Source of the DNA: a virus
Taxonomy: Duplodnaviria; Heunggongvirae; Uroviricota; Caudoviricetes
IMG/VR virus record: IMGVR_UViG_2547132270_000010
Coordinates: 1 to 6,659 of that record
Strand: one strand, 5' to 3'
Length of the DNA stretch: 6,659 nt
This document shows, in pieces, positions 7 through 6,659 of this stretch; position 1 is the stretch's first letter, and each line of letters starts with the position of its first letter. The notes beneath the pieces are model-generated. The model was not told the DNA's origin. It searched no databases and saw only the letters and a program-made list of their open reading frames with translations. The position numbers were made by a program, and so were the translations under genes.

Positions 7-46
7 AAAAAAAAAAAAAAAAAAACCCCGCCGGTCAAGGCGGTGG
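7..46 (-). terminator. Candidate intrinsic terminator: GC hairpin followed by an unusually long 19-nt U tract
   Basis: On the minus strand, CCGCC (32-28) pairs with GGCGG (43-39) around a 6-nt loop, and is followed by 19 consecutive T (plus-strand A run 7-25). The stem is short but all G/C. Confidence 0.6.
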
Positions 47-1739: not shown

Positions 1740-2000
1740 AGCTTCTATTATTCCAGCATAAAATTCCTAACCAACTTCAAATCCTCTGGATTATTCAACT
1801 CATCCTTCATTTTCCGCCTTTTGGCCTCCTGCTGCTGCGATAAGTTCCGGCGTGACGGTAAACGGGGCACCTTCGCCCCATTTACCGCTCTGCAACTCCT
1901 GCTAAACGGAGTAAACGAGCATTCTATCGCCATAGGTGCAAATCGTGAGCCGAGGTAAGTCTTGTAACTTCGCAATTTTTTTATTGGCTAACTGACGCGC

Positions 2001-2040
2001 AATTCTGGATGACTCCAGCGCGCTCAAAAAGTCCAGAATT
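2001..2040. promoter_or_regulatory. Composite dyad-symmetric site just after the stop codon of the 992-aa gene
   Basis: Outer arms AATTCTGGA (2001-2009) and TCCAGAATT (2032-2040) are exact reverse complements. The inner palindrome AGCGCGCT (2017-2024) shares the same centre of symmetry (2020.5). No U tract follows on either strand, so it is not a classic intrinsic terminator. Confidence 0.4.
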
Positions 2041-2056
2041 GAGCGTAAATTTAACT

Positions 2057-5035
2057 TCAAGCCATGCCGTTCTGGCGTAACGTAGTCCCCGCAAATACTT
2101 TCACTAACAAGACACAAGGCAATGCCCCATTATCTGCACTGGCTGTATCTTCCAGCGTGGACATATCCAGCGCATAGTATGGGATATCAGGCATAACAAT
2201 CTGAATTTTGATTGTTATGGTGCTGGCAGTTGCAGAAACAGAACTGACAAAATACTGAGCCGGGATATATTGTCGGCTCTGGTTCTGGTAGAGGTAGCGA
2301 GGTTCGACTATAGCGGAAACAGCGATACCAACCCCGCCAACCGAAGATTTTTTAATGGGGTTAGATACATCCAGAGTCATTGTGTAAACGCGGGAACCAT
2401 CCGGCAGGCTCTTAAATGAACTCAGGCTGCTGTTAAGTGTGCTTACTACTACCTTCGGAATTACAGGATGAGTGCCGTCAACAAGCAGTGTTTCTGATTG
2501 TTCTTTCAGCAAATTTGTTGCCGCCGTGGAAATGACAGGAGCATGGTTTCTGCACCACATCTGCATGGTGGCATTGTATGTAAATGTAATGGCCTTTCCT
2601 GCAAATATCGCTTCCGGTGCATCTGAAATCTGCACATCCTGCGTAAGGAAGGAGGTTCGTGTAACATCCTCTTTCGGTATGATTGACAGACGGCAACCAT
2701 CAACCAGACCAGGCATTATCCTGAACTGAAGATAAGAAAGCGCGGAATCGCTATCAATAAACAGCACCGTGTCACTGTTAATCGTATCCACCACTACCTG
2801 TGCGTTATTTGCGGGTTTGATATGCCGGATATTTCTTTCAGGAAAGGTAATATCTCCGCCCTCAATAACTGAACGGCCATTTATTCGCATAAAATCACGC
2901 GCGCTCATACGGGGAACGGTTCCCCATGACGAAACAGACATTGCCGCTGTAATATCTGAAATCGTTATAGCTGCCGTTTTTCTTATTTGCAGACGGCGAA
3001 GTGCTGTTGTTGCCGCAGTCTGGGAGGCAGTCACTTTGGCCACGAACGCAAAAAAGTCGCTCATGGCGAAAGTATCAATGCCTGCATAATCAGACGTGAA
3101 CAAATCGGGATATGCCCGCTGTATGGCATCAAGAACAGGCAGGCCATACTGTTCCTGTTCTGCAAGTGTACCCAGAACACCAAAACGCCACGGCGCAACA
3201 GAAAAACGGTCTTTTTGCACAAACCGGTCATTACTGGGTTCATCCGGGTAATCAGACTCGTCATAATAAGTCTTAAATCTGCTCTGGGCAGGAACAAACA
3301 GACCCAGCAGTCCTTGTTTGATGGTTTTCATTGTGGCTTCATATTGCGATACAGCCTCAGAATCATTAACCAGTCCGGCAAGAAAAACCAGGGCACGCAA
3401 TCCAGCCCAGACTTCAGCATTATCCTGACAAAAACATTGCGCATAGTGAGTATTACCGGGCGCAATATCCCCCTGAAAAACATTAACCAGATTTGCCTTA
3501 ACATTAATCTGGCGCAGAATATTATGTTCCGCTACCTGCCTGATTACATGCCATCTGGAATAATCACCGATTCCAGAAGATGCTGATAACCACGGCGCGT
3601 CGGCAATTTCAGCAATGCAGGCAAACCACAGGGACGGATAACTGTCTGTGGAATCCGGTGCCACAGGAGAGTATAAGTCGGCGGCAACATCAACAAAAAA
3701 CCATGACCATGATGACGGGATTTGTTTTTCAGTATTTCCGAGGCACTCAAGAACGACGGAGCCGGTATACACAAACTCACCACGGGATACATTGCTGACA
3801 TCAGGCACGTTTTTCCCTGTAACGCCTGCAACGTTTACGAAAAGGAGTTTGTCATCAATCATCAGACGCTGCCCCGCCTCATAGCGGCTTTCAGGCATAA
3901 ACGGAACAGTTATCCCGAGTCTGAATGCTTTTTCACAAATAACGAGCCTGTCCCTGAGAGAAAAGGCTTTACCCTCACTTTCATACATCGCAAGGAACAA
4001 AAAATACCAGTTAATTCCCCCTGTCGGATTAAGATAACGCCATATCCCGGAATAACGGCCTTCAGTTATTTGCATTGCCAGAAACTGCTTATTGGCTTCG
4101 GTGACAGAATAACGGGTGGAGACAGCAAGATGATCACTGATAAACCCTCTTACGCTGTCTGCTGCCATTTCCGCATCTTTGGCGCTCTGAGCTGATTCTT
4201 CTGCGTTTTGCCCTGATAATCTGACGTCTTCTGCCGTGGCGTTTCGATCTTCAGCTGTTGCTGCCGCGTTTTTTCGGGCTTCATCTGCAAAACGACTGGC
4301 TTCATCTCTGGCTTCAATTGCAGCCTGTGAATCTATGGCTGTTTGTTGCGCATTCTGTTGTGTATTCTGCGCGTACTGCTGCGCCTGCTGTTCACTTATA
4401 GCTGCATTATCTGCACAGTTTTTTGATTTCCCGGCACTGGTTTCTGCGTTTTCTGCCGCATCCTGCGCTGCTTTTACTGCTTCATGAACATCCTTAACAT
4501 CCTGTTGTATCTGTGACGCATTTTCTGACACCTCTGCTGCCAGTTGTTCGACCTGTCGTTTATTTTCTTCGATTGCAACTGAAGCCTGTCCGACTTTATC
4601 CGCCAGCTCTTGTGTGCATTTTTTAGCGTTTTCTGCACTGGCTGCATGCTTTTTGGCTTCATCTGCATTTTCTGCCGCAATTTCAGCACTTTGTTCAACC
4701 TGTGCCACCATCGCCTCGAAACGCTTAACCACGTCTGGCTTTAAATCGTCTTCGTCAAAAACTGTTAAAAAATCATTCAGTGTACCGGGGGTTGATTCTG
4801 GATAAACCGTGATATGACCAACACAGTACTCGTCGCGCCAGTCCTGTTTCAGATATACACAGTATTTCCCGGTCTGTGCTTCAAATGAATATTCACCGTC
4901 AGCGCCCGTTACCACGTCAGCAACAGTGCGCATCACCACTTCTGAGGTGTTTACCCGGGATTTCAGAATTATGTGGCATCCGGACATGGGGATGCCTGCG
5001 CCATCAATCAGCGCACCAGAAATTATAGCGGACAT
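2057..5035 (-). CDS. Side tail fibre / tailspike-like receptor-binding protein: Stf-type N-terminal domain, Ala/Glu-rich coiled-coil repeats, large unassigned C-terminal domain
   Basis: 992-aa ORF with ATG at 5033-5035, GGAG 7 nt upstream, TGA stop at 2057-2059. The N-terminus (MSAIISGALIDGAGIPMSGCHIILKSRVNTSEVV...GHITVYPESTPGTLNDFL) closely resembles the N-terminal tail-attachment domain of lambda-family Stf proteins such as Rac StfR, recalled from memory. Residues about 100-300 are low-complexity AENA/AQQ-type helical repeats. The C-terminal roughly 690 aa are not a typical Gly-rich fibre repeat. Confidence 0.85.
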   Translation of the reverse strand: MSAIISGALIDGAGIPMSGCHIILKSRVNTSEVVMRTVADVVTGADGEYSFEAQTGKYCVYLKQDWRDEYCVGHITVYPESTPGTLNDFLTVFDEDDLKPDVVKRFEAMVAQVEQSAEIAAENADEAKKHAASAENAKKCTQELADKVGQASVAIEENKRQVEQLAAEVSENASQIQQDVKDVHEAVKAAQDAAENAETSAGKSKNCADNAAISEQQAQQYAQNTQQNAQQTAIDSQAAIEARDEASRFADEARKNAAATAEDRNATAEDVRLSGQNAEESAQSAKDAEMAADSVRGFISDHLAVSTRYSVTEANKQFLAMQITEGRYSGIWRYLNPTGGINWYFLFLAMYESEGKAFSLRDRLVICEKAFRLGITVPFMPESRYEAGQRLMIDDKLLFVNVAGVTGKNVPDVSNVSRGEFVYTGSVVLECLGNTEKQIPSSWSWFFVDVAADLYSPVAPDSTDSYPSLWFACIAEIADAPWLSASSGIGDYSRWHVIRQVAEHNILRQINVKANLVNVFQGDIAPGNTHYAQCFCQDNAEVWAGLRALVFLAGLVNDSEAVSQYEATMKTIKQGLLGLFVPAQSRFKTYYDESDYPDEPSNDRFVQKDRFSVAPWRFGVLGTLAEQEQYGLPVLDAIQRAYPDLFTSDYAGIDTFAMSDFFAFVAKVTASQTAATTALRRLQIRKTAAITISDITAAMSVSSWGTVPRMSARDFMRINGRSVIEGGDITFPERNIRHIKPANNAQVVVDTINSDTVLFIDSDSALSYLQFRIMPGLVDGCRLSIIPKEDVTRTSFLTQDVQISDAPEAIFAGKAITFTYNATMQMWCRNHAPVISTAATNLLKEQSETLLVDGTHPVIPKVVVSTLNSSLSSFKSLPDGSRVYTMTLDVSNPIKKSSVGGVGIAVSAIVEPRYLYQNQSRQYIPAQYFVSSVSATASTITIKIQIVMPDIPYYALDMSTLEDTASADNGALPCVLLVKVFAGTTLRQNGMA

Positions 5036-5054: not shown

Positions 5055-5489
5055 TTAACCAGAATGCGGAATATTATTTGAAGGTTTATCCGGCCATTCC
5101 GGTTTTTCTGTATTAACCCTGCTCACATGCACACTGTAACGCGCCCATAACTCCAGCATTTCTCGCTCAGCATCAGTAGCCATACCAAGTTTTACGGCTC
5201 GCTCCAGTGGTAATATAATAGATTCTGCTTCTGCCAGAAGTTTGGATTTCTGCCTCTCTGCTTGTTCTGTTAATTCTTCCCGAGTTGGCAGCTCTGGCTC
5301 TGTCACTACTGGCTGACCATATTCATTCGGGTTAATGGTTTTACCTTCTGATTGCTTATCCAAGAGATAACGATACCAGCGTTCTGATATTTCCAGAACA
5401 TCATCCGGCCATGTGCCATTAATATCATAATCACTTCTCAGACTGTCATCATAAAAACTATTTTCTGATGAGCTGTAATAAATCGCCAT
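5055..5489 (-). CDS. tfa: Tail fibre assembly protein (Tfa-type chaperone)
   Basis: 144-aa ORF starting at ATG 5487-5489, 1 nt after the upstream tail-fibre TAA (TAA-T-ATG coupling). The C-terminal motif [33 protein letters not shown] matches the conserved C-terminus of lambda Tfa as I recall it (...[28 protein letters not shown]). Size and position are typical. Confidence 0.85.
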
Positions 5490-5490
5490 A

Positions 5491-6659
5491 TTAGTAACCT
5501 ATAGCTGTCCAGTACATATGTCCGTTATTTTCGCTGTTAAAAGTTGCACCTGTCCTTGATAAGGATTTTACCGAGATAGAATAATCGGCGCGGGTATGTG
5601 CGTTGGTAATAGTAATACTGGTGCATGCTGACGGAAATGCTGTCGGAAAAGTAAGACCTGCCCCGGCGTTACTGAGATACCCCCACTGCGTAATAATTCC
5701 GGTTGACGCATCTTTGTGCCAGCCATTTGCTGCTTTTGATGCGGTGTTTTTAGCCTGATAACGGGCATCTGACTCCGCTTTCGTATAGGAATTTCCAGTT
5801 CTTAAATATCTGGAGTCGAAGTTACCATAATCAGAAGGGTTAACACGCCCGGTAACATTAATTGTTTTATTGCTTTGAATACCGCCACTGGTAAAACGGA
5901 GTACATGCTGCCCATTGGCATAAACATCTAGGACACCATCCCCGTTCTGCTTAAAACCTGTGTCATTGTCTCCGAGAGCAATTGAGTTACCCCCCAGCGC
6001 GTTCTGAACACCGATACCCAGCGCACCATTCACCTGAGAACCGCCGCCAACAGACACTTTATGCGACATGGATATTTCACCAGTCCGCAGATTAATAGTG
6101 AACGGGCGAAGTGGACCAATATCACCACTCTCGCCCTGATTTTCCCGAGTAGGAATGAGATGCAGGCACTCTTCCGAACGACGAAAAATAAGGCCAAAAG
6201 CCTCGTTAAAAATCCTCAGCGCATTAACGCCGCGAATTTTCAACTCTCCGGTCATCAAATCACCAGACTTTTTTACATACCTCTGATCAAAATCTGAATA
6301 AATATTGCCGGGATTTATCACGCTAAAATAGCTTTTCTCACTATCAAGAAGACAAATCAAGGGAATGCCTTTAATGATATCGTTCGCTACCAGTCTGGAT
6401 TTGTTTCCCTTATAAAGTGGGAACGTACCAAGAACCTTTCCGCCTAGTGTTAGTTGAAGTGTCGCCGCGTTGGTATTGTTCTGAACGGGGAAAACGATAA
6501 TCGGGGTTCGTAGCGTCCAATCTGTACCTCCATTAACAAAAAACGTCGAGGGAAGTTCCAGCGTCAGTGCGTTTGCAGTGCCACCAGCAACACCCGCAAT
6601 ATAATGGCCGCTCTGAAGCTGCGCTATCTGTACGAAATAGTTTTCCGAACCACGCGTGG
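5491..6659 (-). CDS. Phage tail fibre protein, C-terminal portion; 5' end lies beyond the window edge
   Basis: The minus-strand frame stays open from the window edge (6659) to a TAA stop at 5491-5493. The 289-aa ORF in the track starts at an internal TTG; the same frame reads without stops upstream (...[29 protein letters not shown]...). The Gly/Ser/Asn-rich beta-type composition and the [11 protein letters not shown] motif are typical of distal tail-fibre segments in lambda Stf, P2 H and Mu S type proteins. The stop is 1 nt from the start of a tail-fibre assembly gene. Confidence 0.8.

Follow-up and report, generated by a model that had tools for sequence, protein, structure and literature searches.

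The subject of this study is the second tail-fibre gene of an Escherichia coli prophage, carried by the IMG/VR virus record IMGVR_UViG_2547132270_000010, whose product combines a phage attachment domain with a distal region predicted to contain a glycosidase-like barrel. The window, meaning here the whole stretch of DNA that was analysed, represents the entire 6659-bp contig AEJY01000213.1 of assembly GCA_000208505.2; the rest of the window's prophage lies off the contig. The gene occupies positions 2057..5035 on the minus strand and is a real, intact E. coli prophage tail-fibre gene: its open reading frame (ORF) of 992 amino acids (aa) starts with ATG and has a GGAG motif 6 nt 5' of the start. 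An earlier note, made from the sequence alone, had described the product as a chimeric receptor-binding protein with an Stf-type N-terminal attachment domain, an Ala/Glu-rich coiled coil of ~200 aa and an atypical C-terminal domain of ~690 aa. The parts of the protein and the genes upstream of it are as follows:

4637..5035, minus strand: Stf-type N-terminal tail-attachment domain, aa 1-133 (PF08400 phage_tail_N, E 1.3e-57; matches to tail-fibre PHROGs)
4151..4720, minus strand: Ala/Glu/Gln-rich coiled-coil stalk, aa 106-295 (composition and heptad periodicity)
2921..4093, minus strand: predicted (alpha/alpha)6 six-hairpin glycosidase-like barrel, core of phrog_33169, aa 315-705
3731..3913, minus strand: small beta domain inserted in the barrel, aa 375-435 (strands at model residues 80-138)
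3407..3667, minus strand: candidate active-site motifs PVAPDSTDSY (aa 457-466; D461, D464) and FCQDNAEVW (aa 535-543; D538, N539, E541)
2549..2836, minus strand: predicted beta-sandwich module, aa 734-829 (second model, pLDDT 70-83)
2078..2455, minus strand: predicted terminal beta-sandwich tip module, aa 861-986 (second model, pLDDT ~85)
5055..5489, minus strand: Tfa (tail fibre assembly protein) of the upstream fibre, 144 aa (Caudo_TAP PF02413, E 7.7e-26)
5491..6659, minus strand: 3' part of the primary fibre gene, which continues beyond the contig end (388-aa partial gene; Gp53-like_C, E 3e-13)

The N-terminal third of the protein agreed with the earlier description. Apart from the PF08400 match, the PDB entry 9e7m ('Tail fiber protein') aligned with aa 2-91 of the 992-aa protein (E 2e-15). 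The next segment (aa 105-295) consists of 25% Ala, 12% Glu and 11% Gln, with only 1.5% Gly plus Pro, and has a 3.5-residue hydrophobic periodicity with a power of 4.37 vs 0.24 ± 0.24, a value reached by 0 of 2000 shuffles. Since this composition is combined with a periodicity beyond all shuffles, the coiled coil is real; the weak SMC/Rad50-type matches of the stalk to NCBIfam are coiled-coil noise, and NCBIfam otherwise gave nothing relevant. The earlier note had also taken two different receptor-binding proteins in tandem to suggest an expanded or switched host range. The tandem is indeed present, but the succession of fibre, Tfa and second fibre is the normal layout of these prophage lineages and nothing special to this locus.

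Distal modules and the barrel family

The C-terminal ~690 aa lack the Gly-rich tip of classical fibres, as had been noticed before, but they form at least four modules rather than a single domain. No significant Pfam family was found for this region. Almost all of it (aa 290-991) matched profile positions 140-841 of 842 in phrog_33169 (E=0, 1371 bits), a family of 'unknown function' whose profile corresponds to the version of the protein with a P2 anchor (P0005, 842 aa). The fold and context assignment described below is thus new information for an unannotated family.

For aa 296-992, AlphaFold2 was run on an alignment of 19 homologues; the model had a predicted local distance difference test score (pLDDT) >90 for aa ~315-705, a helical part with a beta excursion at aa ~375-435. 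Structural neighbours of this part include GH63-like, GH8, GH78, GH133, GH94, GH100, GH76 and GH37 enzymes (GH, glycoside hydrolase), and the best of them are all enzymes. Because of this helical fold and the glycosidases among its neighbours, the core at aa ~315-705 is predicted to be an (alpha/alpha)6 six-hairpin-glycosidase barrel. The small beta domain inserted into it, which we take to resemble carbohydrate-binding modules of the CBM5/12 type, has the motif Y..G..V...GK.F..N.AGTTG...P ... DG.V.WEY.G, and its family profile matches a repeat in the receptor-binding domain of the cyanophage Pam1 tailspike (7eea, E 3e-4). The two beta-sandwiches following the barrel come from a second AlphaFold2 model (aa 715-992); the first of them is present in three copies in the relatives P0008 and P0009.

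The earlier suggestion of a carbohydrate-active or depolymerase-like domain had been based on tryptophan- and aromatic-rich segments. Both segments quoted, WSWFFVDVAADLY and DYSRWHVIRQ, were found at aa 443-455 and 491-500, respectively, inside the predicted barrel, and the former holds two residues conserved family-wide, W443 and D449. Moreover, the C-terminal region modelled as neither a fibre beta-helix nor a plain knob, and its acidic residues are conserved family-wide. The C-terminal region has no right-handed parallel beta-helix catalytic domain. An endosialidase-type C-terminal intramolecular chaperone was considered as well and rejected, being without any Pfam support.

The family is both rare and mobile. 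An exhaustive HMMER scan of 1.84 billion representative proteins revealed only 78 relatives, in which the barrel (aa ~315-700) may be present without the last ~160 aa and vice versa. The terminal module alone ends short fibres (350-400 aa) with P2-type (PF12571) or Stf-type (PF08400) anchors, and the barrel is fused to three virion anchors: PF08400 Stf-type, PF12571 P2-type and T7-type tail-fibre/tailspike N-termini. The barrel protein occupies the second-fibre slot in an HP1/P2-like prophage and the tailspike slot, just before the holin and endolysin, in a Salmonella prophage; in one IMG/VR uncultivated viral genome, a 590-aa protein is composed of a tailspike-type N-terminus and the barrel only, with which it ends. 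The barrel was present in 7 of 5426 complete E. coli genomes and in 17 of 2.9 million IMG/VR contigs. With the C-terminal 697 aa as query, tblastn found no match among 50,697 sequenced phages, two pattern scans of 185,579 species-representative genomes detected no barrel relative with the patterns used, and a further homologue search with the family alignment added nothing. Foldseek against the BFVD viral structures gave no significant match to the barrel, only short matches to the beta modules.

The family retains a cluster of polar and aromatic residues down to 22-30% identity. D449, D461, S462, D464, Q521, D538, N539 and E541 are invariant or at least 90% conserved, as are R610, D654, R681, R685, D694 and several aromatic residues, and the 992-aa window protein retains all of them. 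Within the two candidate motifs, D464 is invariant, and D461, D538, N539 and E541 are near-invariant (≥90%); judging from this conservation, the residues of PVAPDSTDSY and FCQDNAEVW may be catalytic. A sub-threshold similarity to PF22422 (MGH1-like_GH) recurs at one and the same segment: the window protein has it, as do 6 of 32 relatives, with a best E-value of 1.3e-5.

In computational surveys, the alpha/alpha toroid accounts for 11 of 984 predicted phage depolymerases, i.e., ~1% (PMC11326577), and for 29 sequences, <1% of those predicted (PMC12491483). A depolymerase of the alpha/alpha kind is therefore known but rare, and no characterised example of such an alpha/alpha-barrel phage depolymerase was found in the literature searches of this analysis. 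The combination of GH15 with tailspikes led only to a Staphylococcus aureus phage named 'GH15', which is unrelated to the enzyme family.

Recombinant origin of the gene and the chaperone question

The window fibre gene is a recombinant of a resident prophage and a Mu-like phage. Three further features bear on its origin:

4800..4900: recombination crossover zone within the fibre gene, about codons 45-78 (sliding identity)
1963..2056, minus strand: right terminus of a Mu-like transposable phage, ...GCGAAGTTACA on the coding strand
1751..1901, minus strand: remnant of a DUF4376 tail-fibre chaperone gene (tblastn, E 4e-11 and 5e-6)

Sliding identity was calculated against the resident pphA-site prophage of E. 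marmotae (L020) and a Mu-like prophage locus (L004). From 6659 to ~4830, the partial primary fibre gene included, the window is 85-100% identical to L020, with which it shares the 490-aa fibre, the 144-aa Tfa and a 19-nt spacer, and ≤56% identical to L004. From ~4805 to the end of the alignment at 2916, the relation is reversed, with 91-100% identity to L004 in 90-nt windows and 56-76% to L020. The BLASTN match to the Mu-like phage reaches further, to window position 1963, with 95% identity over 1963-4897, and after codon 80 the window gene differs from the Mu-like copy by 72 synonymous and 26 non-synonymous codons.

Position 1963 is the right end of the Mu-like element. Its terminus is common to the window and six Mu-like prophage copies at different sites, and all of them diverge right after the same base (...GTTACA). 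In the window, the terminus abuts the broken DUF4376 gene, and beyond this remnant lies DNA that other strains have between pphA and the DUF4376 gene. Of the Mu-like element, the window contains no more than the 94-bp terminus and the last gene. A gene 95-98% identical to this last gene (P0001) is the final one in Mu-like prophages that occupy at least six different insertion sites, namely tkt, beside a BCCT transporter gene, hslO, citX, citF and a type VI secretion system gene, with ~90 bp from the stop codon to the phage end. The copy splitting tkt, in E. coli AH19B041, encodes a Mu transposase, a MuB-like AAA ATPase, Mor and GemA. Its junctions read ...CAAATAT/TGTAAC... (L001, ~7990-8003; the slash marks the junction) and ...CCCCACAATATGTTGG... 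(L039, ~11860-11880), compatible with a target duplication of 5 bp (AATAT) or 4 bp (ATAT).

Codons 1 to ~70 and everything upstream come from the resident pphA-locus prophage, and the remainder of the fibre gene from the Mu-like transposable phage, where it is the last gene. The most economical history has two steps, the order of which we infer: the Mu-like phage would have transposed into the DUF4376 chaperone gene of the resident fibre, and homologous recombination between the two Stf-N coding regions would then have deleted everything in between. A whole mosaic Mu-like prophage situated upstream of the contig end fits less well, since both the fibre and the Tfa upstream are of the resident type at 85-100% identity. 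The Mu-like prophages themselves fall into two lineages differing at the right end: the P0014 loci (L015-L017) end with the StfN-barrel fibre, DUF4376, Com and Mom, and the P0001 loci (L004-L008) end directly after the barrel fibre, without com and mom.

The origin of the gene bears on another question, whether the fibre depends on a dedicated chaperone. According to the earlier note, none follows it. Indeed, the ORF list of the window contains no intact Tfa-like ORF downstream of the 992-aa ORF; however, the DUF4376 gene is there in decayed form. DUF4376 is listed as the tail-fibre chaperone domain of Alteromonas phages (PMC10579305). Two pieces of the gene are left, one coding for aa 48-75 (1901-1818) and the other, in a different frame, for aa 164-187 (1822-1751); ~88 codons were deleted internally, and the first ~47 codons were lost at the Mu-like insertion point. 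An intact PF14301-containing DUF4376 ORF directly after the fibre is absent from the window; the gene is intact in L014, L015 and L020. In intact phages, no Tfa-like gene follows this allele since P0001 ends the Mu-like prophages with nothing downstream, so that homologues with the same C-terminus bear out the earlier expectation. The proposal of a self-folding domain of the tailspike type is supported: in these homologues, the domain goes without a dedicated chaperone, and it would be tailspike-like in a functional sense only, having no beta-helix.

The classical tip (of the '...DRT.G.L..PGAFGFG...' type) is present in P0010-P0026 and P0031 and, according to the alignment, absent from the window protein. 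Because barrel alleles with this tip are directly followed by a DUF4376 gene, both in Mu-like prophages with Com/Mom (P0014) and in a pphA-site prophage (P0021), and P0001 has none, chaperone dependence appears to track the tip module and not the barrel: DUF4376 goes with the classical tip and no chaperone with the beta-sandwich tip. In the HP1/P2-like prophages L009, L012, L018 and L023, fibres with the same tip always precede an ORF of 240-247 aa (phrog_31292/phrog_1677), a possible helper specific to these fibres, which is followed by an HP1_ORF34-like gene.

Proposed function of the fibre

Overall, we consider it fairly probable that the gene encodes a modular second (side) fibre with a glycan-cleaving barrel, arisen by recombination. 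The best reading of the barrel is that of a fibre-borne polysaccharide hydrolase because the family has near-invariant Asp, Glu, Arg and aromatic residues and is fused to three types of anchors. A carbohydrate-active distal domain, as suggested earlier, is thus supported by fold, conservation and context, from which we infer the catalysis itself. The Stf-type domain would dock the fibre on the tail, with the coiled coil of ~190 residues as a stalk. The distal part comprises the predicted barrel with its inserted beta domain, then a beta-sandwich and finally a lectin-like beta-sandwich tip. The barrel might bind and cleave a polysaccharide on the host surface (O-antigen, capsule or another exopolysaccharide), and the beta modules might add glycan or receptor binding and hold three chains together, the second fibre being probably trimeric. 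The fibre would then act like a depolymerase tailspike on an unusual fold, with a tip of the beta-sandwich type that needs no dedicated downstream chaperone.

Several observations weigh against this interpretation. PF22422 scored 15.2 bits in the window protein and 25.4 in the best relative, compared to a cut-off of 27, and no curated GH family was reached. Searches of PDB sequences with the protein and with the family profile detected no glycosidase, only the N-domain and the Pam1 repeat, and hhalign of the family profile against an Aspergillus niger glucoamylase sequence gave a probability of 1%; the resemblance of 'DNAEVW' to the GH15 acid motif 'DLWEEV' would therefore be a lead only. The conserved D461/D464, D538/E541, D654 and D694 are candidates for the catalytic acid and base of the barrel. 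The models are monomers from shallow alignments (15-19 sequences), in which the linker and the first beta-sandwich are of low confidence. Moreover, one distant relative carries the peptidoglycan-binding domain PF01471 (PG_binding_1), so capsule or lipopolysaccharide need not be the target of every family member. Finally, the window copy is located beside decayed genes (the DUF4376 remnant and an integrase remnant) and may therefore no longer be used.

Some of these points might also be explained by a barrel that is a non-catalytic carbohydrate-binding or purely structural module, with the fibre binding glycan without cleaving it. No curated GH family at threshold, catalytic residues that are only candidates and lectin-like beta modules after the barrel, which could leave binding as the sole function, would all agree with this. 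We nevertheless regard it as unlikely: a cluster of acidic, arginine and aromatic residues conserved across 22-30% identity is typical of active sites and not of scaffolds, and enzymes are the only best structural neighbours. Still more improbable is a different enzyme class (polysaccharide lyase, phosphorylase or epimerase) or a virion-associated cell-wall hydrolase aiding penetration. The PG_binding_1 domain of the distant relative speaks for this reading, and the available part of the DepoScope alpha/alpha-toroid reference set does include PL8 and chondroitin AC/alginate lyase entries. No lyase, however, was among the 60 best matches, and the barrel lies distally on a long side fibre, remote from the tail tip, the usual position of wall hydrolases.

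A further alternative concerns not the activity of the barrel but the fate of the gene, which at this locus might be a silent relic in a decaying prophage, with the hybrid fibre no longer assembled into particles. The broken DUF4376 gene with its additional internal deletion, the remnant at 1114-1500, integrase-like but only 77-80% identical to intact genes, and a Mu-like genome reduced to its last gene and terminus are what would be expected of such a relic. Yet the ORF of 2979 nt is unbroken and preceded by a good ribosome-binding site, all family-invariant residues are kept, and the fibre and Tfa upstream are likewise intact, sharing 85-100% identity with their counterparts in the apparently complete prophage L020, which makes a relic possible but rather unlikely.

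The proposed glycan-cleaving side fibre can be compared with several known systems. It shares with lambda Stf and Tfa the N-terminal PF08400 domain, the position of a second fibre after a fibre-Tfa pair and an elongated, probably trimeric stalk. In contrast to lambda Stf, it has no Gly-rich or 'GAFGxG' distal tip and no Tfa or DUF4376 partner, and its stalk is an Ala/Glu/Gln coiled coil leading to an enzyme-like distal barrel. Depolymerase tailspikes (P22, HK620, the CBA120 tailspike proteins and Klebsiella capsule depolymerases) have a similar architecture of an anchor, a glycan-processing domain (a putative one in the present fibre) and C-terminal beta modules; their distal module is likewise exchanged freely among phage types, and there is no separate chaperone. 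Their catalytic domain, however, folds into a right-handed beta-helix or, in fewer cases, into a beta-propeller, as opposed to the (alpha/alpha)6 barrel predicted here. With the six-hairpin glycosidases of the GH15/GH63 type (glucoamylase, glucodextranase, dextran dextrinase, MmpH, mannosylglycerate hydrolase), the modelled barrel has in common the (alpha/alpha)6 fold, a weak PF22422 similarity on helices 5-7 and conserved acidic residues at helix N-termini. With them it has only 8-12% identity; it also stays below every curated threshold, has the inserted beta domain and is embedded in a virion fibre. Finally, a comparison can be made with phage Mu and its right end (G segment, gin, com/mom): the gene of the donor lineage is the last one before the right terminus of a MuA/MuB-encoding prophage, and the sister lineage keeps Com and Mom after the StfN-barrel fibre and the DUF4376 gene; unlike Mu, the donor lineage lacks the invertible G segment as well as gin, com and mom.

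Receptor-binding proteins with depolymerase domains decide the host range of phages and are mined as anti-capsule and anti-biofilm enzymes. To our knowledge, nearly all known examples are beta-helices or beta-propellers, and the prediction tools are trained on those. The depolymerase type of receptor-binding protein is already known, but it would be present here on a rare fold and in an unannotated family. If true, a conserved family of six-hairpin-glycosidase fibres annotated with 'unknown function' would widen the search space for depolymerases, and the barrel could supply an enzyme of new specificity for surface glycans of E. coli or Salmonella. The locus also ties chaperone dependence to the type of fibre tip and represents a clean natural example of fibre modules moving between unrelated temperate phages, in which the terminus of a transposable phage became fossilised in another prophage. 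A more far-reaching proposal, plausible but too tentative for us to call it probable, is that two things hold together. The barrel would found a phage-specific glycoside-hydrolase family (a candidate new CAZy family), exchanged as a fibre cassette among Mu-like, P2/HP1-like and podovirus-like phages. The locus would, at the same time, record a previously undescribed route of receptor-binding protein exchange, whereby a transposable phage enters the fibre module of another prophage and its terminal fibre gene is subsequently grafted onto the resident tail by homologous recombination.

Flanking DNA of the window

The first 1960 bases of the window were considered as phage DNA, which was rejected in favour of flank DNA with gene remnants. 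PADLOC found no defence-system match in the window, and neither Rfam at gathering thresholds nor a tRNA scan matched it. Megablast of positions 1-1113 against the 5426 complete E. coli genomes gave no match. At 1114-1500, the nucleotide sequence resembles (77-80%) tyrosine recombinase/integrase genes present in many E. coli genomes; it has no long ORF and is probably an integrase remnant of another element. The AT-rich stretch at 400-1100 (28-35% GC), which makes up most of 1-1113, is without convincing ORFs.

Sub-threshold Rfam similarities were observed at two places. At 1410-1513, SraC/RyeA (27.4 bits, gathering threshold 37) and SdsR/RyeB (26.4 bits, gathering threshold 38) were located on opposite strands; in E. 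coli K-12, these small RNAs adjoin pphA, so that their presence would agree with the locus. The second, at 45-217, is a weak match to the small RNA STnc100 (26.7 bits, gathering threshold 47). It falls within a region (1-332) in which ~20 consecutive A residues precede a GC-rich hairpin; together they read as an intrinsic terminator of the minus strand (stem 43..28, then a T-run). The A-run is at the contig edge and could be an assembly artefact. Positions 12-332 have 77-80% resemblance to unannotated loci in many E. coli genomes (the query 1-1120 matched 1841 genomes in all), and the region 1-332 may, on its sequence, be an unannotated prophage-associated RNA.

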